Of a DNA stretch of 64,000 nt, positions 1,568 through 38,668 are shown piece after piece; position 1 is the stretch's first letter, and every line of letters begins with the position of its first letter. The notes beneath the pieces were generated by a model that saw only the letters and a program-made list of their open reading frames with translations, made no database searches and was not told where the DNA came from. Location of the stretch: the sequence record MH243438.1, one strand, 5' to 3'. The position numbers and the translations under genes were made by a program. The DNA is from Escherichia phage vB_EcoM_NBG1.

Positions 1568-1849
1568 CTATTTTTCTGAAGCGCCTGAAATATATTTTTC
1601 AAGACGTTGTTTCATTAGCGAGCCGTTCTTAGCGATTTCTTCTGGTTTATCGCACATACGCAACAAGGCTTCAAGCTTAGCGATATCGCTGGTACGTTCA
1701 AATTTGCGAGTATCTATCTTACTAGCAAGTTCAGAAATACGTGCTAATAGACTTTCGGCTTCAACCAAAGCTGCACCTAACTTAGTTGCAAATGTGTCAG
1801 TAGCTTCATTAAGAATAGATTCTGATAAAAATTCACTATATGTTTTCAT
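1568..1849 (-). CDS. internal-protein-like small protein ([10 protein letters not shown])
   Basis: Internal ATG at 1849 with SD GGAAAG; capsid-targeting-type N-terminus; sits between denV and e where T4 has ipII/ipIII; ATGA overlap with e stop. Confidence 0.6.
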
Positions 1850-2334
1850 ATATACGCTTTCCAAGTTCCTGTTTTAAATGTTGAGATTACGCGTTTCGCG
1901 CGATTAGGTGTCTGACGATACCATTTAGATTGGGCTAGATTTACTGCCGCTTCATCCCAACGTTTCTGTTGAAGCATACGAAGAGAATTAGTAAAACCGG
2001 CGACGCCTGCTACGCCCATTTGGAAGACCATATTGACCAATGCACATCGACGAACCGCATCTAAAGAATCATATACCGGTTTAAGTTTAGCATTACCCAA
2101 GATTCCGCGAACGGCTTTATCAACGTCTTCATTAAATAGCTTTTCAGCCTCATCAAGGGTAATTGTACCGTTGCATTTACGACCGATCATTCTGTCAAGT
2201 TCAGCTTTAGCTACGGCTAAAGACGGGTTCTTTGTTACTAAATGGCCTATGCCAATCGTCCAAAAGCCTTCAGTGTCTTTGTATAAAGTCAGTCTAAGAC
2301 CTTCGTCATTACGAAGCATTTCAAATATATTCAT
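1846..2334 (-). CDS. e: lysozyme (endolysin)
   Basis: Near-identical to recalled T4 lysozyme ([21 protein letters not shown]...); start at ATG 2334 preceded by GGGAGG. Confidence 0.93.
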
Positions 2335-2368
2335 AATACCTCCCACGTTTATAGGAGGTATTTATTAC

Positions 2369-2827
2369 TTATAGTAGGGTAGTGAGTACCTTATATAACG
2401 ATTTGCCCATCACATATTCCCATTGAGAAGGTTTAATTAAAGCGAATGCATCAAATTCAGGAATCTGTCGTCCGTCTGGGAATGTATGATAGGAATTACA
2501 AACACTGTTTCTGAATTGCTCGTGCTCTACAGGGATGGTATATAGGAACAGATGAATATTCTTATTGTCTGAGTAATGATGTTCACCTAGGTCTTTCAGG
2601 AAGGCAGGGTCGTATTGTGTAAACCCAGTTTCTTCTTCGCATTCACGAATAGCGGCTTCAATAGGAGATTCGCCAGGTTCGACACGGCCTTTAGGAATAT
2701 CCCACCTATGAGCTAATGCACCTTTAGAACGAGAACCAGTTACACGCCCCATGAATAATTCTTTATCTTCGGTAAGGAAAATAATACCGGCTGATAGTTC
2801 TTTCACTTTATTTTTCTTACTCATCAT
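2369..2827 (-). CDS. nudE: Nudix hydrolase
   Basis: Nudix box G-x5-E-x7-REC-EEETG (GRVEPGESPIEAAIRECEEETGF); position after e as in T4 e.1. Confidence 0.85.
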   Translation of the reverse strand: MMSKKNKVKELSAGIIFLTEDKELFMGRVTGSRSKGALAHRWDIPKGRVEPGESPIEAAIRECEEETGFTQYDPAFLKDLGEHHYSDNKNIHLFLYTIPVEHEQFRNSVCNSYHTFPDGRQIPEFDAFALIKPSQWEYVMGKSLYKVLTTLL

Positions 2828-3053
2828 CTCGGTCCCATGATTTGGCCATTAATTCGGACATAAATTCTTCAATGCGCGTTTCTTTAGATGGACTTTCACT
2901 ATTAGAGACCGCAAGTTTGTAATCTGCAATAGGACAGAACATATCAAGGTCCATATTAAGGTCGTCTTTGATTTTTTCTTCTGACACATCTTTATCGTAT
3001 GTGTACAGATAACTATCACATGATTCTGATTTAATGTAAATTGCTATACTCAT
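2817..3053 (-). CDS. hypothetical protein
   Basis: ORF with internal ATG 3053 (MSIAIY) 9 nt after AGGA; ATGA overlap with upstream gene stop. Confidence 0.5.
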   Translation of the reverse strand: MSIAIYIKSESCDSYLYTYDKDVSEEKIKDDLNMDLDMFCPIADYKLAVSNSESPSKETRIEEFMSELMAKSWDRDDE

Positions 3054-3541
3054 CTCAAATTCCTGCATTCGGTAATAAAACGTTCAACTTCATTATTCTT
3101 GGCCTTTATCTTGTCTTTACGTTCCTGTAAACTACTTTTAACAAGATTAATAATGATGCCTACAGTACCGCCGCCAATGATGCCGCCAACAACACTTATG
3201 ATAATAGATGCTAATAAGATAGCAATAATATCAACAAAACCGAAAGAACTCACCTTAGTACTAAAAAACCATACCGACGGTACAAATATAATCCATCCTG
3301 TTATCCATTGGCACTTATTGAAAAACTTTTCAAGCTCAGCTTGAGTTGTTCGTATTACTTCATCGATAGGTTGATATCCATTAATGTATCTGTTCACGAT
3401 AATACCTGCTGGCTGGTCGATTTTAAATTCTTGGCAAATATGTTTCACTAAGTAGGATGGACATCCTGTCCAATCTACTGAATAGTATGAAATACCTTCG
3501 TTGCCATCGTCTATATTAGACCAATATGTTTTGTTAATCAT
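3050..3541 (-). CDS. hypothetical membrane protein with C-terminal FITECR tail
   Basis: Two hydrophobic segments (WITGWIIFVPSVWFF; FVDIIAILLASIIISVVGGIIGGG); C-terminal ...ERFITECRNLR. Confidence 0.55.
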   Translation of the reverse strand: MINKTYWSNIDDGNEGISYYSVDWTGCPSYLVKHICQEFKIDQPAGIIVNRYINGYQPIDEVIRTTQAELEKFFNKCQWITGWIIFVPSVWFFSTKVSSFGFVDIIAILLASIIISVVGGIIGGGTVGIIINLVKSSLQERKDKIKAKNNEVERFITECRNLR

Positions 3542-4227
3542 TACCAGCCTTCCATAGGGAATTCCAGATAAACTTGAGCATTGACACGAATTTCATTGGT
3601 AATCTTTTTAACTCGGTCTGTATTACGAGATACACGTCCGAACCAACGCCATCCGTTACTAATTGCACGAGAACCAGTGTGCCATGTTTGCCAATCAAAC
3701 TGAAGAAGAGTACGATCTGGAGCTTCCCATTTCTCTAGTTCACCTTTTTCAATTTTTTCGAGGACTTCTTTGTGCCACTGGCGATAGATAAGTTCGCCAT
3801 CAGGAATCTGACTGAACTCTGCAGTTCCTGTTGCAAAATGAGTAGGACACACGTCAGCGTTAACAAGACCAAGAATATGTTCAGAATGGTAACGAGGGTT
3901 GTCATAGTCAGGTTGTCCTGCAGTAATAAAGTGTTGACCAACTGGAATATCAGGGCGAGGAACATCATCATGGTGGTATCCAGGAATAGCAGGATACCAA
4001 CCAGGCATCAGCATATGAACCCGAGAATCAAATACAACATGTTGATTAGTCCAATCAATTGGGAGATTGGCAATAAAGCTACGAGTGATTGAGCCACCAT
4101 TATCCCAAGCAAAACCCAAATCACAATTAAAGAACATTGGTTCATTTTTGATTCGGTCATTTTGTACGTTATGTGCAAAACTACCAACTGCACGAGCTTG
4201 ACTATTAAAAGTTTTAGAACTATTCAT
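3541..4227 (-). CDS. hypothetical protein, possible Fe(II)/2-oxoglutarate dioxygenase-like
   Basis: 228 aa; H85-H86-D87 ... H183 ... R198-V-S pattern resembles HxD...H...RxS triad; not verified by any search. Confidence 0.3.
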   Translation of the reverse strand: MNSSKTFNSQARAVGSFAHNVQNDRIKNEPMFFNCDLGFAWDNGGSITRSFIANLPIDWTNQHVVFDSRVHMLMPGWYPAIPGYHHDDVPRPDIPVGQHFITAGQPDYDNPRYHSEHILGLVNADVCPTHFATGTAEFSQIPDGELIYRQWHKEVLEKIEKGELEKWEAPDRTLLQFDWQTWHTGSRAISNGWRWFGRVSRNTDRVKKITNEIRVNAQVYLEFPMEGW

Positions 4228-4228
4228 A

Positions 4229-4534
4229 TTATTTTCCTCGACATTCTTTAATGAAATTTTCTAGATTGGTAGATTCAATAGCTTTTTTACGAGCTTCTGC
4301 ATGTTCTTCTTCAGACAATTTACATTTATAATTAACCCAGACATTATGGTCGAAACTAGTCGTGGCATATAATAACAATGCTCCAACGAATAGCAAAAAC
4401 GGCGATAAGAATACAAAACCAGGAACACCATCCATATCGTAAGCCTTTTGTAATACTGCAACAGAAAGAGCTGCGTAAAAAGGTGATGCAAATATTGTTA
4501 AAAGACCAATTCGGTTGGTTTCGCCTAATTTCAT
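4229..4534 (-). CDS. hypothetical small membrane protein with C-terminal ENFIKECR tail
   Basis: Two hydrophobic segments; C-terminal ...LENFIKECRGK; SD GAGGAGAA upstream; 1-nt spacer to next gene. Confidence 0.55.
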   Translation of the reverse strand: MKLGETNRIGLLTIFASPFYAALSVAVLQKAYDMDGVPGFVFLSPFLLFVGALLLYATTSFDHNVWVNYKCKLSEEEHAEARKKAIESTNLENFIKECRGK

Positions 4535-4592
4535 AATATTCTCCTCATGTTTTAATAGGACTACTATAATATATCCCTATCAGTTTGTACAC
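4535..4592 (-). promoter_or_regulatory. early promoter/stem-loop cassette (GTGTAC -35 variant, TATAAT/TATAGT -10, ATAGG...CCTAT inverted repeat)
   Basis: Minus-strand reading: GTGTACAAACTGATAGGGATATATTATAGTAGTCCTATTAAAACATGAGGAGAATATTATG. Confidence 0.55.
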
Positions 4593-4793
4593 TTATTTTG
4601 ACATTTCTTCGATGTCACGACGATACCCATCACGAACTTCACGAAGAGCTTCAAGGCCACACATAGGCTCGATACCAGTAATGTGAACTTGATTAATCTG
4701 ATACTCTACATCTTCTAACTGAGCGAAAACATAACGACGTTCTGCTGCACAACCGGGTTTAGCTTTACCGAAACGTTTATTCAAAGTAGTCAT
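4593..4793 (-). CDS. hypothetical protein
   Basis: Internal ATG 4793 (MTTLNKRFGK) preceded by GGAG; cassette upstream. Confidence 0.5.
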   Translation of the reverse strand: MTTLNKRFGKAKPGCAAERRYVFAQLEDVEYQINQVHITGIEPMCGLEALREVRDGYRRDIEEMSK

Positions 4794-4873
4794 TTTTATA
4801 TCTCCATTCACTCATTTGTTTTGATAGGTCTATAGTATCAACAACTACAGACCTTGTAAACTGTTTTGTGAAA
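4794..4873 (-). promoter_or_regulatory. early promoter/stem-loop cassette
   Basis: Minus-strand: CACAAAACAGTTTACAAGGTCTGTAGTTGTTGATACTATAGACCTATCAAAACAAATGAGTGAATGGAGATATAAAAATG; GGTCT...AGACC inverted repeat. Confidence 0.55.
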
Positions 4874-5830
4874 TTATTTGAAAGGTTTTACCATATGAAA
4901 GTTTTGTTTGAAACGCTTGACGTAATCGTCGTGTCCTAAGCTTTGGTACATACTTACTACTTTGCTATAATTTTCCCAAGCGAACTCACGGAACCATCCT
5001 GATGTGATTGATGTACAGACCTTTTCAAGGGCCATCATAAAACTATCACGTGGATGGATTTTAAAGTCGTTAGGAATCTGTGAACGTTCAAGAGCTAATA
5101 CACAAGCTTCTTCATATACACCGGCTAATTTAACCATTTCTGGTAATGATTTGAACTTCTCGCGTGATGTCATAACTTCTGAGCCTTCTTTCATATAAAA
5201 CTTATAAGCAGGCTGGTCAGTTAGTGCAATGGCTTCATGAATAGTATCATGGTCATATGTATAGATGTCATCTTTAAAGAACGCACTTTTAGAAGTGTCA
5301 AGAACTGGGTGAGCATAATTCAAGGTTTCTTTCTGGCGTTTCAGCATAATTTCAGTAAGTTCATCGTTCAGTGTAACACCTTTACCACGAAGATACTGAA
5401 TATGATTCATAGTCTTTAAAAAGAATGGATTATTTTTCTTGAAACGATGAGACATCTTAATTGCAAGACATATCTCGGGAGTTGCCCAGTAAAACCCGTT
5501 CAAACGGTCTTTAGTCAAATTTTTCTTGGCGTATTTTAAAAGGTCATAAGAAGACGTGAAATCTTCAGGAGTGAGTTCACCAACTAATTCACGGACATTA
5601 GTGATTGCCGGAACAATATATGCTTCAAAATGAGTTTCGCGTCCATTATGGAAGCATTTGAAAACTTGGACGTCAGGGTTATCTTGGTGAACGTATACAC
5701 CCATCATTTGATTTTTGAATGCATTCCAAGAACATTGGTCCGCAATAAAATCCCAATCACTATTTTTGATAGCGCTAGAATCAATAAGACCATGATAGTG
5801 AAGTGCACGAGAACCAATAACTAACATCAT
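4874..5830 (-). CDS. hypothetical protein, possible nucleotidyltransferase fold
   Basis: 318 aa; N-terminal VIGSRALHYHGLIDSSAIKNSDWDFIA resembles GS...DxD of Pol-beta-type NTases but spacing is atypical; SD GAGGAA. Confidence 0.3.
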   Translation of the reverse strand: MMLVIGSRALHYHGLIDSSAIKNSDWDFIADQCSWNAFKNQMMGVYVHQDNPDVQVFKCFHNGRETHFEAYIVPAITNVRELVGELTPEDFTSSYDLLKYAKKNLTKDRLNGFYWATPEICLAIKMSHRFKKNNPFFLKTMNHIQYLRGKGVTLNDELTEIMLKRQKETLNYAHPVLDTSKSAFFKDDIYTYDHDTIHEAIALTDQPAYKFYMKEGSEVMTSREKFKSLPEMVKLAGVYEEACVLALERSQIPNDFKIHPRDSFMMALEKVCTSITSGWFREFAWENYSKVVSMYQSLGHDDYVKRFKQNFHMVKPFK

Positions 5831-5855
5831 AATAATTTCCTCGAATTTAGATTAC

Positions 5856-6095
5856 TTAAATTTCACGACATGCGATATTATATTCATCCCAGAGGTCATC
5901 ATGTGAAGCCTCTACCAATGGAACGATTGTACCGTTTATGTCTTCATTATAAGGGCAAATTGTACAGTGCGCATCTTCGAATCGGATGCCTTTGTGTTCA
6001 GATTTTTTATAACGCATATCGAATATCTTTGCAAACTTTTCACGAGTAATAGTTTTAGCAACCACTTTGGTTCCGATACTTTCGTAATAAATCAT
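5856..6095 (-). CDS. hypothetical protein
   Basis: Internal ATG 6095 (MIYYESIG) 8 nt after GGAG; contains HCTICPY; C-terminal ...NIACREI. Confidence 0.5.
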   Translation of the reverse strand: MIYYESIGTKVVAKTITREKFAKIFDMRYKKSEHKGIRFEDAHCTICPYNEDINGTIVPLVEASHDDLWDEYNIACREI

Positions 6096-6157
6096 TGTGG
6101 ACTCCATTTGTTTTGATAGGACTACTATAACATAGCCCTATCTTGTTGTAAACTGTT
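6096..6157 (-). promoter_or_regulatory. early promoter/stem-loop cassette
   Basis: Minus-strand: AACAGTTTACAACAAGATAGGGCTATGTTATAGTAGTCCTATCAAAACAAATGGAGTCCACAATG; -35 GTTTAC, -10 TATAGT, 18-nt spacer. Confidence 0.6.
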
Positions 6158-6355
6158 TTAGCAAGAATAACTAGATGATACCCAGCCTTGAACAGTGATA
6201 CTATTGTGGGATAATGAGATCGCGTCCTGGAGATTCAGACCTGCGTTATCTTCAATCCATAATGTAACTTCTTCGCGTTCTTCTGTTGCAATTTGGAACA
6301 GGTTTTCCAGAGCAGCTACTGCCGTACGTACAGCACAATCTAATTCACGAGACAT
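6158..6355 (-). CDS. small protein, paralog family with C-terminal GWVSSS..C
   Basis: 65 aa ending ...VQGWVSSSYSC; third of three tandem paralogs. Confidence 0.55.
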   Translation of the reverse strand: MSRELDCAVRTAVAALENLFQIATEEREEVTLWIEDNAGLNLQDAISLSHNSITVQGWVSSSYSC

Positions 6356-6364
6356 ATTGTTTCC

Positions 6365-6637
6365 TTAGCAAGTGTGAGAAGATGCGACCCAACCACCAGT
6401 TTCGAGGCTCAGGTTGTAGTCGTATTGGTAAACGTCAGCCCATTCAGCATAGCCGTTTTTTGTACAACGTTCAAGATCGGCTTTAAGATGTCCGGGTGAA
6501 TGATAGGTTCCACCCATACCATAAGCTGGATACAAGTCGAATGTTGTGTTTTGTTTATCAGCAATTTCTTTGGCAGCCTCAATAGCTGCATAGATTTTTG
6601 CTACAGCTTCAGCCAGTTCGGTTTGTTCTTTAGACAT
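6365..6637 (-). CDS. small protein, paralog family with C-terminal GWVASS..C
   Basis: 90 aa ending ...ETGGWVASSHTC; junction TGCTAAGGAAACAATATG to next gene. Confidence 0.55.
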   Translation of the reverse strand: MSKEQTELAEAVAKIYAAIEAAKEIADKQNTTFDLYPAYGMGGTYHSPGHLKADLERCTKNGYAEWADVYQYDYNLSLETGGWVASSHTC

Positions 6638-6646
6638 AATGATTCC

Positions 6647-6952
6647 TTAGCACAACGCAGAAGACGAAACCCAAGCACCTTCAGTAATAACGTAACCGTT
6701 ACCTTCACGCTTAACATCGCCACCATTATTTTCAATTTCATCTTTCATCCACTGGGATACGATTTCACCCTTAGGATAATAAGTACGACCACTACCATAA
6801 TCACCTACAGAAAATGATACAGCATATTGGTCTGCGATCTTTGTTGCTTCTTCTTCGATACGTTCAGCTTGATTCAGAAGTTTATAAATTGCATCTGAAG
6901 CGGATTTGGCATCATTAAACTCTGGTACTTTAATTTCAATAATCTTACTCAT
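6647..6952 (-). CDS. small protein, paralog family with C-terminal AWVSSS..C
   Basis: 101 aa ending ...TEGAWVSSSALC; junction TGCTAAGGAATCATTATG. Confidence 0.55.
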   Translation of the reverse strand: MSKIIEIKVPEFNDAKSASDAIYKLLNQAERIEEEATKIADQYAVSFSVGDYGSGRTYYPKGEIVSQWMKDEIENNGGDVKREGNGYVITEGAWVSSSALC

Positions 6953-7308
6953 TTTCTACATTCCTTAATAAAGTTTTCGATTGTTTCATTTTCACGTTTA
7001 GCTAGGAGTTCATTATAACTAATCATTTGAGAAGCGTAAACCTTTTTATTTTTCTTGTTATGGTTTATAAAATCGTAGTAAAAATAGACCACAGTACAAA
7101 ATGATGCGATGGATGCAAAGGCTTGGGTATACCGTAAGTCCTGCCATTGGTCTGTGAATCCACCGGTATTCCCTATAAATCCTAACACAACTCCGTCAAT
7201 AAGAAATCCAACTAATCCAAAGGCAAATCCCATGCCAATACTCATAATAAAAATTAGAATGTTCTCGCCGAGAGAAGGCCGAACAGTTAAGAGTTTAGGT
7301 TTTTGCAT
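6949..7308 (-). CDS. hypothetical membrane protein with C-terminal ENFIKECR tail
   Basis: Hydrophobic segments (ILIFIMSIGMGFAFGLVGFLIDGVVLGFIG; FASIASFCTVVYFYY); C-terminal ...IENFIKECRK. Confidence 0.55.
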   Translation of the reverse strand: MQKPKLLTVRPSLGENILIFIMSIGMGFAFGLVGFLIDGVVLGFIGNTGGFTDQWQDLRYTQAFASIASFCTVVYFYYDFINHNKKNKKVYASQMISYNELLAKRENETIENFIKECRK

Positions 7309-7682
7309 CTTATTTCCTTAACGAATTCCATAGCTTCTTCGTATTCGTACTTTTTAACAGCTTCGTCATACTGAGCTTGGGCTTTTGCGCACTGAACTTT
7401 CCATTCGCGTACTCGAGCTCTATAATGACGTCCTTGGTACCAATATCCCACCCAGTTAATAGGCATTAATAAAAATGGCACAATAAACGACCCGGCTATA
7501 ATAAGTAAAAACACTGCATCAGACGATATAACTTCACTAGAATCTAAAACAGCTCCTATAATCATAAAGATTAAAAATGCTAAAGCTAAAATAGGGCCAA
7601 ATAGTACTTCGTTTGGGATTAATTTACGTTTGTATTCGTATGCCCAGGGCTTAATTGGTTGATAAAGGGTTGGCTTTGACAT
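7287..7682 (-). CDS. hypothetical membrane protein with degenerate C-terminal EFVKEIRC tail
   Basis: Start moved to ATG 7682 (MSKPTLYQ); two hydrophobic segments; 3' end overlaps next gene start by 22 nt. Confidence 0.5.
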   Translation of the reverse strand: MSKPTLYQPIKPWAYEYKRKLIPNEVLFGPILALAFLIFMIIGAVLDSSEVISSDAVFLLIIAGSFIVPFLLMPINWVGYWYQGRHYRARVREWKVQCAKAQAQYDEAVKKYEYEEAMEFVKEIRCKNLNS

Positions 7683-8253
7683 ATTCTCTACATTCCATAA
7701 TAAATTGCTCAAGGATTAAATTGTTAGTGAAATTAGGACTAACAACCATAGTTTCATAAAGCGCATCAATAGCACTTAAAGCATCAACTCTCTTAAGCAA
7801 AGGCTTGCCTTCATACATAGTTTCAGAATCGACGATTAAAGTGAAGTAGTATTTTTTATTATTGACCAGAACTTCTGTATCAATATAAAACATGTTAGAC
7901 CTCAGAAGCTTATCTCTAAAACCATAATAATCTTTAGAGCGTTCGCTGATATATTCCCATTCAGTGTTTAAACAACAAACAGACCATGTAGGAGCAACGA
8001 AATCGGTGAATCTAATATCATGGTCTGCAACTAGTTTAGCAATAGCTCCGATATCATGAATCATAATACCTGGGGTTAATAAAGATTTTCTGCTATGGCT
8101 AGCCGTTTTCTCAGTAGTCTCATAAGAAGACGACCAGTACCATTTACGTCCAGTTGCAACATATCGTAATGAATCAACTAAAGACGTAGGTGGATTTACC
8201 TTATCTCGGAACTCTTCGAACATTGAGTCAATATCATTATTTTGGTTTCGCAT
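7651..8253 (-). CDS. hypothetical protein with C-terminal QFIMECRE motif
   Basis: Start at ATG 8253 (MRNQNN) 6 nt after AAGGAG; no obvious TM segment; motif 13 aa from the C-terminus. Confidence 0.5.
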   Translation of the reverse strand: MRNQNNDIDSMFEEFRDKVNPPTSLVDSLRYVATGRKWYWSSSYETTEKTASHSRKSLLTPGIMIHDIGAIAKLVADHDIRFTDFVAPTWSVCCLNTEWEYISERSKDYYGFRDKLLRSNMFYIDTEVLVNNKKYYFTLIVDSETMYEGKPLLKRVDALSAIDALYETMVVSPNFTNNLILEQFIMECREYVKANPLSTN

Positions 8254-8270
8254 GTTAACTCCTTTATTAT

Positions 8271-8294
8271 CCAAAAGGAGGACCGGAGTCCTCC
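8271..8294 (-). terminator. rho-independent terminator-like hairpin (GGAGGAC-loop-GTCCTCC then UUUU)
   Basis: 7-bp GC-rich stem followed by T-run on the minus strand, 9 nt downstream of stop at 8303 and ~18 nt before the next ATG. Confidence 0.55.
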
Positions 8295-8302
8295 GTATTA
8301 TT

Positions 8303-8896
8303 TTATTTCAAAGAGTTAATATATTCTTGTACATCAGCAGAAGTGGTTTCGACACCAGCTGGAGTGCCATTGAACGTTTCAACACGAGTCAGAGTGTCTT
8401 CGATATCAACCTTAGTCAGTGCAGCGATTTCAATTACATCATCAGCCGTAGAGATACCAAGGGCATTGGCTGCTCGAGTTTCACGAATGTATTCGAGTTT
8501 GATTGCCAGATTCTGACGAGCATCATCAAGTTCAACCACCTTACGAGCAATTTCAATTCGCATAGCGGCATACCCGTCAGCTTTTGTATTAAGTTGTTCG
8601 GCAGTTCGACGATACAGAAGACCAAGCTTAGCATGCATAGTAACATCTTGTCCTTCAGCCAGGAGCTTACGAATTTCACGTTCCTTAGAAGCGGCTTGCT
8701 TGTTCTTTTCATTAACAAGTTCGCGAATACGTTTTTCTTCATTAATAGATTTAACAGAAGCCGTTTTTAGTTCTTTGATTTGGGTAATCAACTTATCTGC
8801 AGCTGCGTTATACTGTTCTTCGACAGTCAGATTTTTAGCCATAGCAGTACCCAGTTTAGTGCGGATGAATTCAACAAGTTTCTTCAGTGTGTTCAT
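8303..8896 (-). CDS. coiled-coil protein, possibly PspA/IM30-like
   Basis: 197 aa, highly charged helical heptad-like sequence; start at ATG 8896 (MNTLKK) after AAGGT; family assignment is a guess. Confidence 0.3.
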
Positions 8897-8967
8897 ATTA
8901 TTACCTTTCAATTGGTGGTTTATTATCCAACGAGAGCATTATACTCTGCTCTCAAGAGTTTGTAAAT
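8897..8967 (-). promoter_or_regulatory. sigma70-like early promoter with stem-loop (TTTACA-N17/18-TATAAT; GAGAGCA/TGCTCTC inverted repeat around -10)
   Basis: Minus-strand: ATTTACAAACTCTTGAGAGCAGAGTATAATGCTCTCGTTGG... Confidence 0.55.
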
Positions 8968-9240: not shown

Positions 9241-9405
9241 TTAGATGTAAATTATTTCAACGTCACCTTTAGCTGCTTTATAACCTTCAGCCCAAGATAC
9301 AACAGAGTTTTTATCCGAGGATTCAAATTCAGGCATTGGACTTTCACCAATATTCACACAGTATGTTTCTTCATTTTCATCGAACCAAATAATTAAAGTA
9401 GTCAT
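9241..9405 (-). CDS. hypothetical small protein (54 aa), not in the ORF track
   Basis: ATG at 9405 preceded by GAGGAG; translation MTTLIIWFDENEETYCVNIGESPMPEFESSDKNSVVSWAEGYKAAKGDVEIIYI; cassette upstream. Confidence 0.45.
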   Translation of the reverse strand: MTTLIIWFDENEETYCVNIGESPMPEFESSDKNSVVSWAEGYKAAKGDVEIIYI

Positions 9406-9473
9406 TTTGTTTACTCCTCTGTAGTTGATAAGTCTATAGTATCACCGTCCTTGGTGCTTGTACATCGTTATTT
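9406..9473 (-). promoter_or_regulatory. early promoter/stem-loop cassette
   Basis: The 44-nt string tcattttgtttactcctctgtagttgataagtctatagtatcac is repeated exactly at 9402-9445 and 44981-45024. Confidence 0.55.
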
Positions 9474-9779
9474 TTAATTTTTCCAACTTAACAACTTGTA
9501 GTGTCCTTCATTCATACATGGTTTATCCCAAGAAATACTAATATATGATTCACCGTCAATAGAAGTCGCCGGGTTTTTCTCTACCGTAAGACCTTCACTT
9601 TCCAGCCATTCAATAGTATTTGCGCATAAATCGGAAGAACACCTCATCGGAAACCTGCAAGATTTTTCACCTTTAGCTGCAGTGTTATACATCTTTTCTA
9701 AAATACGCTTTTGCACGTTTTTAAAAATAGTTTCAGCAGATTCTTCAGATTTTTTATTCAGTTCAGTGTAAAGACTCAT
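9474..9779 (-). CDS. hypothetical protein
   Basis: 101 aa; SD GAGGAAAA; cassette upstream. Confidence 0.5.
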   Translation of the reverse strand: MSLYTELNKKSEESAETIFKNVQKRILEKMYNTAAKGEKSCRFPMRCSSDLCANTIEWLESEGLTVEKNPATSIDGESYISISWDKPCMNEGHYKLLSWKN

Positions 9780-9840
9780 AATATTTTCCTCATGTTTTTA
9801 TAGGTCTATAGTAACACATCTAGGGAAGAAGTAAACAACT
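9780..9840 (-). promoter_or_regulatory. early promoter/stem-loop cassette
   Basis: Minus-strand: GTTTACTTCTTCCCTAGATGTGTTACTATAGACCTATAAAAACATGAGGAAAATATTATG. Confidence 0.55.
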
Positions 9841-9868
9841 TTATGAAATATTTTTATGCCCTAGATGC

Positions 9869-9897
9869 CAAAAAGCCCCAACCTTTCGGAAGGGGCT
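9869..9897 (-). terminator. rho-independent terminator (AGCCCCUUCC-GAAA-GGUUGGGGCU then UUUUU)
   Basis: Long GC stem with GAAA tetraloop followed by U-run on the minus strand, closing the tRNA/small-ORF transcription unit. Confidence 0.6.
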
Positions 9898-9934
9898 ATG
9901 CCTTGCGGCAACCTTGTCGGGGTTCCACCTGCTA

Positions 9935-10205
9935 AGGCAAGTGTTTGTACGAAACGCCGGGATTCGAACCCGGTTATTAAGCAGTTGACGCTACTCAATA
10001 TTTTTAAAAGGCCATATCTCGACCATATCCGAACGTTCCGTCAAAAACGCTACTCGGCTTACGGCAAATATATTTCCTCGAATCGATAATTCTGTGCGCC
10101 GTTTCTGCTGTGATGTAAGGGGATATTAACAAATCGTAAAGATTTATTAAGACCAGTCCTTACTCAGGGAACATCAGTCCGACGACTTACCGGTAGCGAC
10201 CCGGC
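9935..10205 (-). ncRNA. non-coding stretch with tRNA-like T-arm (CCGGGUUCGAAUCCCGG); candidate stable small RNA or tRNA remnant
   Basis: No ORF with SD; perfect T-arm motif at ~9955-9975 but no acceptor-stem partner found; T4 encodes small stable RNAs next to its tRNAs. Confidence 0.25.
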
Positions 10206-10208
10206 TTC

Positions 10209-10553
10209 TTATTTTGGCATATCATCAATTTGCTCTCGACGCCGACGCCATAGATTAATCGCTTCATTGGCACATTCTGCGTTTGGTATATGACGGCAGT
10301 AATATAATGATTCGCGTTTCTGGAACCGATGTTGCAACGGGATTTCGTTTAAAAGGTCTTTACGGTCAAAGTATTCAAAACTAGTTAACCCAGAACGGTT
10401 TTTAATGAACTTCCAATGGCCGAATTCATTTTGAACATAGATGTAATCTGCATGTTGGTATAACAAATTAATCAATCGGTCTGAAATAACTGTATCATTT
10501 TCGTTAAAATAAAACGTTAAATCATGAACTACCAAATAAATATTGCCTTTCAT
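10209..10553 (-). CDS. hypothetical protein
   Basis: Start moved to ATG 10553 (MKGNIY) after GAGGA, so the gene no longer overlaps the tRNA. Confidence 0.5.
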   Translation of the reverse strand: MKGNIYLVVHDLTFYFNENDTVISDRLINLLYQHADYIYVQNEFGHWKFIKNRSGLTSFEYFDRKDLLNEIPLQHRFQKRESLYYCRHIPNAECANEAINLWRRRREQIDDMPK

Positions 10554-10571
10554 ATTTTCCTCACTTAAAGT

Positions 10572-10648
10572 TGGCCGAGACAGAAGGATTCTAACCTTCA
10601 ACCTACGGATTAGAATTCCGTTGCTCTATACAATTGAGCTATGCCTCG
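10572..10648 (-). tRNA. tRNA-Arg (anticodon UCU)
   Basis: Hand-folded cloverleaf: 7-bp acceptor stem (one GU), D-stem GCUC/GAGC, anticodon stem ACGGA/UCCGU with loop AUUCUAA, T-arm GAAGG-UUAGAAU-CCUUC, encoded CCA. Confidence 0.8.
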
Positions 10649-36685: not shown

Positions 36686-38668
36686 ATGGCACTTCTCTCT
36701 CCGGGCGTTGAGCTCAAAGAAACTACCGTACAGAGTACTGTAGTTAATAACTCCACTGGTACTGCTGCCCTGGCTGGAAAATTCCAATGGGGACCTGCAT
36801 TCCAGATTAAACAAATCACTGATGAAGTTGCATTGGTTGATATGTTTGGTACTCCTAATACAGATACAGCAGATTATTTCATGTCTGCTATGAACTTCCT
36901 TCAATATGGTAATGACCTTCGTGTTGTACGCGCAGTTGATCGTGATACTGCTAAGAACTCATCTCCTGTAGCAGGCAATATTGAATTCACAATCTCTGCT
37001 GCTGGTAGTAACTATGCAGTTGGTGATAAAATTATCGTTAAGTATTTGACCGAAACTGTTGAAGCAGATGGTTATGTCACTTCAGTTGATGTCGATGGTA
37101 AAATTCTTAACATTTATATCCCAACCGGTAAAATTATTGCTCGTGCAAAAGAAATTAATGAATATCCGGCATTGGGTTCTAACTGGACCGCCGAAGTTGC
37201 CAGTTCTTCTTCTGGACTCTCTGGCGTTATTACAATTGGTTCTATCGTAACCGATTCAGGTATTCTGTTAACTGAAGTTGAAACTTCTGAAGAAGCTATT
37301 ACTTCTCTAACTTTCCAAGAATCTATTAAAAAATATGGTGTCCCAGGCGTAGTTGCTCTTTATCCTGGTGAACTTGGCGACCAGCTCGAAATTGAAATCG
37401 TATCTAAAGCAGACTATGACAAAGGTGCTTCAGCCCAGTTAAAAATTTATCCTGATGGTGGTACTCGTGCATCTACGGCTAAAGCAATCTTTGGGTATGG
37501 CCCACAAACTGATGACCAATATGCAATTATCGTTCGTCGTAACGATGCTGTAGTTCAGAGCGTAATTCTTTCTACTAAACGCGGTGAACGCGATATTTAT
37601 GGTAGTAATATCTTTATTGATGATTTCTTTGCTAAAGGCGCAAGCAATTATATTTTCGCTACGGCACAAGGTTGGCCAAAAGGTTTCTCTGGCGTAATCA
37701 AACTGGGTGGTGGCTTATCATCTAATGAAACGGTTGACGCTGGTGATTTAATGGAAGCTTGGGATTTGTTTGCTGACCGCGAATCTGTTAATGCGCAGTT
37801 GTTTATTGCCGGTTCTTGTGCAGGTGAATCTTTAGAAGTTGCTTCTACAGTTCAGAAACATGTTGTAGCAATTGGTGATTCTCGCCAAGATTGCTTGGTT
37901 CTTTGCTCACCGCCACGTGCAACTATAGTCGGTATTCCTGTTAATCGTGCAGTTGATAATCTGGTTGATTGGCGTACTGCATCAGGAACTTACACTGATA
38001 ATAACTTTAATGTAAGTTCTACTTATGCTGCTATTGACGGTAACTATAAATATCAATATGACAAATATAATGACGTGAATCGTTGGGTTCCGTTAGCTGC
38101 TGATATTGCAGGTCTTTGTGCTCGCACAGACAATATTTCTCAGCCTTGGATGTCTCCGGCTGGTTATAACCGTGGACAAATTCTTAACGTTATTAAGCTT
38201 GCAATTGAAACTCGTCAACCACAACGTGATCGTTTGTATCAGGAAGCTATTAACCCTGTTACTGGTACCGGTGGCGATGGATATGTTCTGTATGGTGATA
38301 AAACTGCCACTTCCGTTCCTTCACCATTTGACCGTATTAACGTTCGTCGTTTGTTCAATATGGTTAAAACGAACATTGGTTCAGCATCTAAATATCGCCT
38401 GTTTGAATTGAACAACGCATTTACCCGTTCTTCTTTCCGTACAGAGACTTCTCAATATCTACAGGGTATTAAAGCTCTCGGTGGTGTATATAACTTTAAA
38501 GTTGTTTGTGATACTACCAATAACACCCCAGCAGTTATCGACCGTAATGAATTTGTAGCTACTTTCTACTTACAACCTGCCCGCTCGATAAATTATATTA
38601 CGTTGAACTTTGTAGCAACAGCAACTGGTGCCGATTTCGACGAACTGATTGGTGCTGTAGGTGGTTAA
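36686..38668 (+). CDS. 18: tail sheath protein gp18
   Basis: 660 aa, synteny. Confidence 0.93.
   Translation: MALLSPGVELKETTVQSTVVNNSTGTAALAGKFQWGPAFQIKQITDEVALVDMFGTPNTDTADYFMSAMNFLQYGNDLRVVRAVDRDTAKNSSPVAGNIEFTISAAGSNYAVGDKIIVKYLTETVEADGYVTSVDVDGKILNIYIPTGKIIARAKEINEYPALGSNWTAEVASSSSGLSGVITIGSIVTDSGILLTEVETSEEAITSLTFQESIKKYGVPGVVALYPGELGDQLEIEIVSKADYDKGASAQLKIYPDGGTRASTAKAIFGYGPQTDDQYAIIVRRNDAVVQSVILSTKRGERDIYGSNIFIDDFFAKGASNYIFATAQGWPKGFSGVIKLGGGLSSNETVDAGDLMEAWDLFADRESVNAQLFIAGSCAGESLEVASTVQKHVVAIGDSRQDCLVLCSPPRATIVGIPVNRAVDNLVDWRTASGTYTDNNFNVSSTYAAIDGNYKYQYDKYNDVNRWVPLAADIAGLCARTDNISQPWMSPAGYNRGQILNVIKLAIETRQPQRDRLYQEAINPVTGTGGDGYVLYGDKTATSVPSPFDRINVRRLFNMVKTNIGSASKYRLFELNNAFTRSSFRTETSQYLQGIKALGGVYNFKVVCDTTNNTPAVIDRNEFVATFYLQPARSINYITLNFVATATGADFDELIGAVGG

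Follow-up and report, generated by a model that had tools for sequence, protein, structure and literature searches.

T4 is among the best-studied viruses, yet its genes e.2 to e.6 and their neighbours are without known function. Here we analyse a 64,000-nt stretch of the Escherichia phage vB_EcoM_NBG1 genome (record MH243438.1; hereafter the window), in which five proteins of this gene cluster end in a similar short peptide, which we denote the FIxECR tail. The 5.6-kb region that encodes them is 95-98% identical to RB69-like Mosigvirus genomes, and the window belongs to an RB69-like Mosigvirus. With names assigned through homology to T4 and RB69, the tail genes are e.2, RB69ORF133c (which we denote B), e.3, e.4 and e.5, all on the minus strand. 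A first-pass annotation made from the letters had placed such C-termini on five open reading frames, and all five lie where it put them:

3050-3541, minus strand: e.2, 163 amino acids, ending in VERFITECRNLR and a stop codon
3062-3079, minus strand: e.2 tail motif FITECR (TTTATTACCGAATGCAGG); next ATG at 3053-3051, gap of 8 nt
4229-4534, minus strand: B, 101 amino acids, ending in LENFIKECRGK and a stop codon
4238-4255, minus strand: B tail motif FIKECR (TTCATTAAAGAATGTCGA); next ATG at 4227, gap of 10 nt
6949-7308, minus strand: e.3, 119 amino acids, a membrane hairpin ending in IENFIKECRK and a stop codon
6955-6972, minus strand: e.3 tail motif FIKECR (TTTATTAAGGAATGTAGA); next ATG at 6952, gap of 2 nt
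7287-7682, minus strand: e.4, 131 amino acids, two transmembrane segments, ending in AMEFVKEIRCKNLNS and a stop codon
7308-7325, minus strand: e.4 variant tail FVKEIR(C) (TTCGTTAAGGAAATAAGA); the e.3 ATG at 7308-7306 overlaps the Arg-Cys codons
7651-8253, minus strand: e.5, 200 amino acids, no transmembrane segment, ending in LEQFIMECREYVKANPLSTN and a stop codon
7687-7704, minus strand: e.5 tail motif FIMECR (TTTATTATGGAATGTAGA); e.4 ATG at 7682, gap of 4 nt

Hydrophobic segments of transmembrane length occur in four of these five proteins, e.5 being the exception, in agreement with the earlier count. The e.2 protein combines a conserved N-terminal domain with transmembrane segments around residues 92-135 and a C-terminal stretch that is probably cytoplasmic; it is 90% identical to its RB69 orthologue and matches PHROG 2203, a 'membrane protein' family. 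B, which has two transmembrane segments, is found in Mosigvirus only. In e.5 the tail (LEQFIMECR) is followed by 11 further residues, whose codons overlap the start of e.4. The codons that furnish the Shine-Dalgarno sequence of the following gene differ between tails: in e.3 and e.4 they are the Lys-Glu codons of the motif itself (AAGGAA), whereas in e.2 and B they extend past the motif (Arg-Asn, AGGA, and Arg-Gly, GAGGA, respectively).

The tail recurs far more often than chance predicts, and it is restricted to the e cluster. A six-frame search of the 64-kb window for F[IV].E[CI]R returned exactly these five sites, each no more than 11 residues from a stop codon. The stricter pattern F[IV].[ED]CR matched four times in the window (100 mononucleotide shuffles gave 0.05 matches on average) and three times in the complete 168,903-bp T4 genome, where the matches are e.5, e.3 and the e.2 remnant, all C-terminal. 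The corresponding DNA pattern, TTYATTNNNGAATGYMGR, has four exact matches in the window against a mean of 0.18 in dinucleotide-preserving shuffles; a fifth, with one mismatch (36794-36811), lies antisense within the tail-sheath gene and was set aside as spurious.

To follow the tail beyond Mosigvirus, we compared syntenic regions from T4 and other Tequatroviruses, VR20 (Gaprivervirus), dhaeg (Dhakavirus), Entb_45 (Kanagawavirus), Marfa and Potts1 (Marfavirus) and X20 (Winklervirus). The relatives came from a phage GenBank collection, and a search of IMG/VR with e.4 returned six loci; e.3 is present in roughly 700 T-even genomes. Across the seven genera (Mosig-, Tequatro-, Gapriver-, Dhaka-, Kanagawa-, Marfa- and Winklervirus), each genome encodes three to five tail proteins between e.6 and nudE. 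In T4 the tails read FVKECR (e.5), FVKESR(C) (e.4), FVIDCR (e.3) and FITECR (e.2); in VR20 they read FIAECR, FIKEVR, FIKECK and FIEECR; in Entb_45, FVDQCR, FIKNVR, FIKQCR and FVKGCR; in Marfa, FIKHCR, FLKEIR, FIKYCR, WIKGCR and WVKGCR; and in X20, FVKMCR, FIKECR (directly followed by the stop codon), FIKGCR and FIRGIR. The FIKQCR tail of Entb_45 sits on a protein that we denote X99, a soluble tail protein of roughly 100 amino acids in other genera (99 in Entb_45). Together these sequences define the consensus h-x-x-[F/W]-[I/V]-K/x-x-C-R, in which h is hydrophobic, at or near the C-terminus.

Within this consensus the amino acids are retained while the codons turn over. In each orthologue alignment, which covers five genera, the Phe, Cys and Arg residues belong to the 11-17 columns that are invariant, and tail sequences have pairwise identities of 0.50-0.59, compared with 0.32-0.41 for the remainder of each protein. 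The codons nevertheless vary without changing the amino acid (Arg as AGG, AGA, CGT or CGA; Cys as TGT or TGC; Phe as TTT or TTC), and the Ile/Val position is encoded across orthologues and paralogues by ATT, ATC, GTT, GTG and GTA. Even within the window, B and e.3 share the peptide ENFIKECR although its eight codons contain four synonymous differences between the two genes. The wobble differences remarked on in the first-pass annotation are thus real, and they become much larger in the other genera.

That annotation had also described a conserved DNA block that supplies the Shine-Dalgarno sequence of the next gene and ends 0-40 nt before its ATG, and this part is not supported in that form. 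A ribosome-binding block would be expected to conserve its wobble positions, which the tails do not, and to keep a fixed spacing of about 5-13 nt from the start codon; the observed gap is 0-10 nt in the window (0, 2, 4, 8 and 10 nt) and widens to 22 nt for e.5 of VR20 and 31 nt for e.5 of Entb_45. Different codons provide the Shine-Dalgarno sequences, as described above. Every tail in the window does abut a downstream start, as proposed; however, neighbouring genes without a tail have junctions that are equally tight or overlapping, so that this arrangement does not set the tails apart. RegB sites (GGAG), MotA boxes and late promoters, sought by reading the tail sequences for the consensuses, were absent. 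Because codons turn over and the next ATG may follow at anything from 0 to 31 nt, the comparison points to selection on the tail peptide and not on a fixed ribosome-binding block, bearing out the other half of the earlier proposal. The resemblance among the tails at the DNA level and their use as Shine-Dalgarno sequences would then arise because a conserved peptide is encoded at tightly packed junctions with AT-rich codon bias.

One position of the motif changes in concert across the tail proteins. Every one of the 17 tails from the T4, Mosig-, Gapriver- and Dhakavirus group has an acidic residue (Glu or Asp) at position 4, against only 2 of 13 tails from Kanagawa-, Marfa- and Winklervirus, where Gln, Asn, Gly, His, Tyr and Met, specified by differing codons, take its place. 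Since the substituted residues differ, this pattern is a shift in constraint shared by several protein families and not gene conversion. Such a shift would be expected if the tails met a common partner or one another, and unexpected if they were read by a host component such as the ribosome.

We next considered whether the proteins that carry the tail are related along their length, using orthologue alignments of e.2, e.3, e.4 and e.5 that span five genera and comparing the resulting profiles with hhalign. The e.3 and e.4 profiles align over 59 columns (88% probability), which take in the second transmembrane segment as well as the tail, and both proteins begin with M-x-K-P-x-L; on these two grounds they are likely paralogues that arose as tandem duplicates. 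For e.2/e.3, e.2/e.4, e.5/e.3, B/e.2, B/e.3 and X99/e.5 the alignment is limited to 10-19 columns of the tail. B matches PHROG 2203, the e.2 family, weakly (E = 0.0019) over its transmembrane and tail part. At least three types of protein body are therefore joined by the tail alone: that of e.2, the hairpin of e.3 and e.4, and the soluble bodies of e.5 and X99. Precomputed families keep e.2 (PF26896) apart from e.5 (PF26876). Thus, apart from e.3 and e.4, the carriers do not form a full-length paralogue family by hhalign with these shallow five-sequence alignments, and the earlier description of a tail on otherwise dissimilar proteins largely stands: the motif is not confined to one copy per genome, and the similarity it marks does not extend to whole proteins. 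Given how shallow the alignments are, a very ancient common descent of the bodies is possible.

Homology searches with the tail proteins provided no functional lead. A local copy of Pfam gave no significant match to any of them, word-indexed searches with e.2 and e.5 retrieved close relatives only, and when 1.84 billion representatives were scanned in full with e.5 by phmmer, nothing emerged beyond relatives in T-even phages. The neighbouring e.6 protein had looked PspA-like by eye, an assignment that we dropped when Pfam gave no such match.

The DNA that encodes the tails also marks sites at which whole genes have been lost or gained in frame. In most Tequatroviruses e.2 is intact, with 162 amino acids and the ending NNFITECRKLK. 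In T4 it is split by a 1-nt deletion and the tail persists in another frame (6360-6850 of locus L001; 67484-67960 of AF158101). The annotated T4 e.2 (102 amino acids) is without the tail, and the annotated T4 nudE start (MQEIKM...) is an ATG that lies within the e.2 tail codons, GA-ATG-C; a second ATG, with a proper AGGA upstream, looks like the true start of nudE. Elsewhere e.2 is precisely absent, as in locus L006 (8650-8830), RB32, RB33, PP01, PST and others, a genotype found in at least 40 of the best 60 Tequatrovirus records. The resulting junction reads e.3...GATTGCAGGAAA, then TTAAAATGAAAACA...nudE, which places the crossover within TGCAGGAAA, common to the e.3 and e.2 tails; the exact repeat between these two tails in T4 is 9 bp. 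In p000v-type Mosigviruses the body of e.3 has been deleted and its last 31 codons, containing the tail and the next start, have been kept (4991-5090 of locus L002, p000v; around 8400-8500 of locus L004). These remnants account for the tail-only tblastn matches in p000v and relatives, for which we had considered, and rejected, a modular tail fused to a new body.

The tails thus behave as breakpoints for in-frame loss or gain of whole genes. We regard this as a side effect and not as a selected function, because the tails contain no promoter or hairpin and are not conserved as DNA. The suggestion that they are recombination linkers accordingly holds in part: the e.2 indel junction does lie inside the tail repeat, as a consequence of the repeat and not as a demonstrated function.

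The tail genes are embedded in an early gene cluster that runs e.6, e.5, e.4, e.3, e.2 and nudE, with these flanking features:

8966-8938, minus strand: early-type promoter-like site preceding e.6
8303-8896, minus strand: e.6, by homology with T4 and RB69
8294-8277, minus strand: hairpin between e.6 and e.5
2369-2827, minus strand: nudE, by homology with T4 and RB69
1846-2346, minus strand: lysozyme gene e, with a listed GTG start; a T4-type MNIFEML start lies a few codons further in

The block formed by the promoter-like site, e.6 and the hairpin (8277-8966) lies directly upstream of e.5. An older T4 record with annotated promoters, L13089, has a layout that matches the window, and this agreement, together with the promoter-like site 5' of e.6, indicates that the tail genes are co-transcribed. 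The order e.6, e.5, e.4, e.3 is conserved in Mosig-, Tequatro-, Gapriver- and Dhakavirus; in Kanagawa-, Marfa- and Winklervirus, e.6 and an e.5-like gene are accompanied by a single e.4/e.3-like gene. The hairpin at 8277-8294 is strong and GC-rich (GGAGGAC-TCCG-GTCCTCC, followed by a T run) and has a T4 counterpart in the same place (GGGGC-UUCG-GCCCC); its probable role within the operon is attenuation or RNA stabilisation. Just upstream of e.2, a 228-amino-acid protein (3541-4227, minus strand) is unusually widespread, with 75-82% identity in T4-like phages of Aeromonas and Klebsiella and about 30% identity in mycobacteriophages, Gordonia phages and one Bacillus phage; one prophage record labels it 'oxidoreductase'. 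Another conserved neighbour, at 4874-5830, is a DUF7275 protein.

On this evidence, the explanation that we favour, to which we give roughly even chances, is that the tail is a cytoplasmic docking or assembly motif through which the e.2-e.5 proteins contact a common partner or one another. It draws on the co-transcription of the genes, the predicted cytoplasmic location shared by the tails and the correlated change at position 4, and under it the tail proteins probably work as one module. The motif is kept by purifying selection on its amino acids and probably sits at the end of an α helix; it is carried by membrane proteins (e.2, e.3, e.4 and B) as well as by soluble ones (e.5 and X99). As judged from the spacing in the sequences, the hydrophobic residues of the tail (h, F, I/V and C) fall on one face of such a helix, and hydrophobic moments of 0.32-0.64 make the tails moderately amphipathic. 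In the membrane proteins the tail would lie about 25-45 residues past the last transmembrane segment, on the cytoplasmic side, because clusters of Lys and Arg flank that segment (positive-inside rule). The tails could then either dock on a shared partner or form bundles among themselves, yielding a single membrane-associated module. Tandem duplication may have produced e.3 and e.4 and the two e.2-like genes of Marfavirus, and recombination at the repeated tail DNA may have placed the tail onto other bodies; the likeness of the tails as DNA and the doubling of their codons as the next Shine-Dalgarno sequence would be secondary.

Several observations weigh against this interpretation. The change at position 4 coincides with what is essentially a single deep split in the phylogeny. 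The e.4 proteins have Ile, Ser or Val in place of the motif Cys. Between 0 and 15 residues separate the motif from the C-terminus, so recognition cannot need a free carboxylate. T4 has a frameshifted e.2 and many Tequatroviruses have none, which makes this gene dispensable and polymorphic in that genus and means that no single tail member is indispensable. Common descent of the tails is possible and would weaken the claim that unrelated proteins carry them. AlphaFold2 models of e.5 (six-sequence alignment, pLDDT 54) and e.2 (nine near-identical sequences, pLDDT 33) are too poor to tell an exposed tail from a packed one; both draw the tail as a helix, at a confidence that is unusable.

A bolder version, which we consider improbable, has the tails as contact points of an unrecognised multi-subunit phage membrane complex in which Cys residues from different chains together form an inter-subunit metal, Fe-S or redox site. 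Here e.2, e.3, e.5, and B or X99 would each contribute one helix with a single invariant Cys-Arg, e.4 would be a Cys-shifted variant, and the metal or redox site would lie beside the inner membrane. Were this true, the tail codons would amount to a portable homology patch by which recombination could swap subunits in and out with the assembly interface undisturbed.

The most serious competitor, itself unlikely in our judgement, makes the tail a relic of paralogy: a single ancestral gene for a small membrane protein was duplicated in tandem and the bodies diverged, leaving a functionless tail that is frozen by its overlap with downstream initiation. The 59-column e.3/e.4 alignment with its common N-terminal start, the weak match of B to the e.2 family and the adjacent pair of e.2-like genes in Marfavirus, both of which end in W[IV]KGCRK and a stop codon, are all as this history would have them, as is the use of e.3 and e.4 tail codons for ribosome binding. 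But freezing by initiation should also freeze the wobble positions, and it is the codons that change while the amino acids stay fixed; the e.5 motifs of VR20 and Entb_45, 22-31 nt from the start and thus beyond the ribosome-binding site, are still conserved; the soluble e.5 and X99 share only the tail with the membrane proteins; and tail-less neighbours are packed just as tightly. The same evidence for selection on the peptide that favours docking would also suit a signal that acts without any shared complex, either a degradation or quality-control tag read by a protease of host or phage or an amphipathic helix at the membrane surface, for which the hydrophobic moments speak as well. C-terminal degrons and C-terminal membrane-targeting helices are both well known in E. 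coli. A targeting helix would, however, be redundant in the four carriers that are already integral membrane proteins, and as a membrane anchor the tail would be short and strongly charged. The known C-terminal degrons of E. coli are non-polar and occupy the extreme end of the protein, where these motifs are followed by 0-15 residues, and a host reader would not predict a lineage-wide change at position 4 among phages with closely related hosts. We therefore hold such a signal to be distinctly unlikely.

Two further explanations place the function in the nucleic acid or in the act of translation. The tail DNA could be a junction cassette for translational coupling, a homology patch for gene exchange, or both, as a coding-region analogue of the PeSL elements known from T4-type phages. 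The e.2 indel junction within TGCAGGAAA, the frequency of the e.2-less genotype, the loss of the e.3 body in p000v with retention of the tail and the downstream start, and the abutment of every window tail on a start codon all lend themselves to this idea. Recombination at small, randomly homologous sequences is invoked in the PeSL work itself (PMC4122927), and a single indel boundary is what chance recombination at any short direct repeat would produce. Beyond the shared peptide the tails have little nucleotide identity (a 9-bp exact repeat in T4, and four synonymous differences between B and e.3); their spacing to the start codon is not fixed, and no promoter-like or terminator-like element is present at any tail, which together leave the cassette quite improbable. 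Still less probable, to the point of being very doubtful, is a nascent peptide that acts in cis from the exit tunnel, slowing the ribosome at the end of the open reading frame and tuning downstream re-initiation. It would explain why the motif is selected as peptide whatever the body, why it lies near the stop codon and why, in the window, it falls within the ribosome footprint of the next start. The distances involved are variable (0-15 codons to the stop, 0-31 nt to the next start), and the same tunnel serves Escherichia, Klebsiella, Enterobacter and Serratia, yet position 4 differs among the phage lineages. We know of no arrest motif that resembles the FIxECR tail.

A literature search on the gene names e.2-e.6 returned nothing relevant, and no prior description of the tail motif was found. 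A short shared C-terminal motif is a well-known kind of element; what is new is the present case, together with the proteins that carry it and its double part as a recombination breakpoint. The tail, on three to five proteins in each of seven genera, is the first sequence-based evidence for a functional link among them, and it offers a small, precise experimental handle on their partner and process. Nothing is overturned by these results; rather, a block of function-unknown T4 genes becomes a testable module.

Among known systems, the closest precedent in T4 is the C-terminal tail of hydrophobic LDFLF type by which gp43, gp33 and gp55 bind the sliding clamp gp45; in bacteria, the β-clamp-binding peptide QL[SD]LF is carried by unrelated proteins. 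Like the FIxECR tail, the gp45 and β-clamp tails are short C-terminal peptides that are conserved as peptide on unrelated proteins. Clamp tails dock several proteins on one hub, whereas for the FIxECR tail a common partner is proposed. The sequence also differs, being [FW]-[IV]-K-x-C-R followed by 0-15 residues, where the clamp consensus occupies the extreme C-terminus, and the FIxECR carriers are mostly membrane proteins encoded in a single operon. T4 also has a capsid-targeting sequence of the MKTYQEFIAE type at the N-termini of prohead-internal proteins, which gp21 cleaves at L/I-x-E with an invariant Glu. We considered and rejected this identity for the tail, which is C-terminal and sits on carriers with segments of transmembrane length; the position of the invariant Glu is taken by Asp, Gln, Asn, Gly, His, Tyr or Met in T4 e.3 and in Kanagawa-, Marfa- and Winklervirus.

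Another comparison is provided by tandem accessory paralogues of the T-even phages, represented in the same operon by a family with the C-terminal signature W-V-S-S-S-x-x-C (6158-6952), which are likewise adjacent small genes with a shared C-terminal signature. In its broader form, W-[VI]-[SA]-S-S-x-x-C with Cys as the final residue, this second signature ends three minus-strand genes of the window (6647-6952, 6365-6637 and 6158-6355) and is present in four to six copies in other genera; further instances lie at 9351-10617 of locus L010, 5935-7558 of L009, 5539-7111 of L018 and 2644-3203 of L023, and some GenBank records label these open reading frames or their neighbours 'sulfurtransferase'. 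A promoter-like site within e.3 (7040-7012, minus strand; TTTACG, a 17-nt spacer and TATAAT, 10 of 12 positions matching), about 40 nt upstream of the e.3 tail, could be an internal promoter for these downstream genes or a chance match. The genes at 6647-6952 and 6365-6637 match the same family, PHROG 899, over most of their length, and that at 6158-6355 matches PHROG 4882. In their duplicate-like character, e.3 and e.4 and the two e.2-like genes of Marfavirus resemble this family; unlike it, the FIxECR tail joins at least three types of body that have no other detectable similarity.

The likeness to PeSL elements is one of behaviour. Both are short repeats at gene boundaries in plastic regions of T4-type genomes, both take in the next gene's Shine-Dalgarno sequence and start, and both occur at indel junctions (PMC2839356, PMC4122927); for the tails, an indel boundary of this kind is seen in the single case of e.2. 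PeSL elements are intergenic, conserved as DNA and built from -35/-10 boxes and a stem-loop, whereas the tails are coding, conserved as peptide and subject to codon turnover, and promoter-like or terminator-like sites on the minus strand are absent from 3062-3079, 4238-4255, 6955-6972, 7308-7325 and 7687-7704. PeSL-like intergenic units are present elsewhere in the window (4591-4536, 4860-4812 and 6152-6108, minus strand), each with T4 early-promoter-like -35/-10 boxes (GTTTACA ... TATAGT) inside an inverted repeat (ATAGG...CCTAT) that precedes a Shine-Dalgarno sequence and start codon; between them lie the genes specific to Mosigvirus that these units flank, 4593-4793 and B. The FIxECR tails are a clean case of repeats within coding sequence that are selected as peptide and also serve, at gene junctions, as breakpoints for gene loss or gain, which complements the modular evolution attributed to the intergenic PeSL elements.

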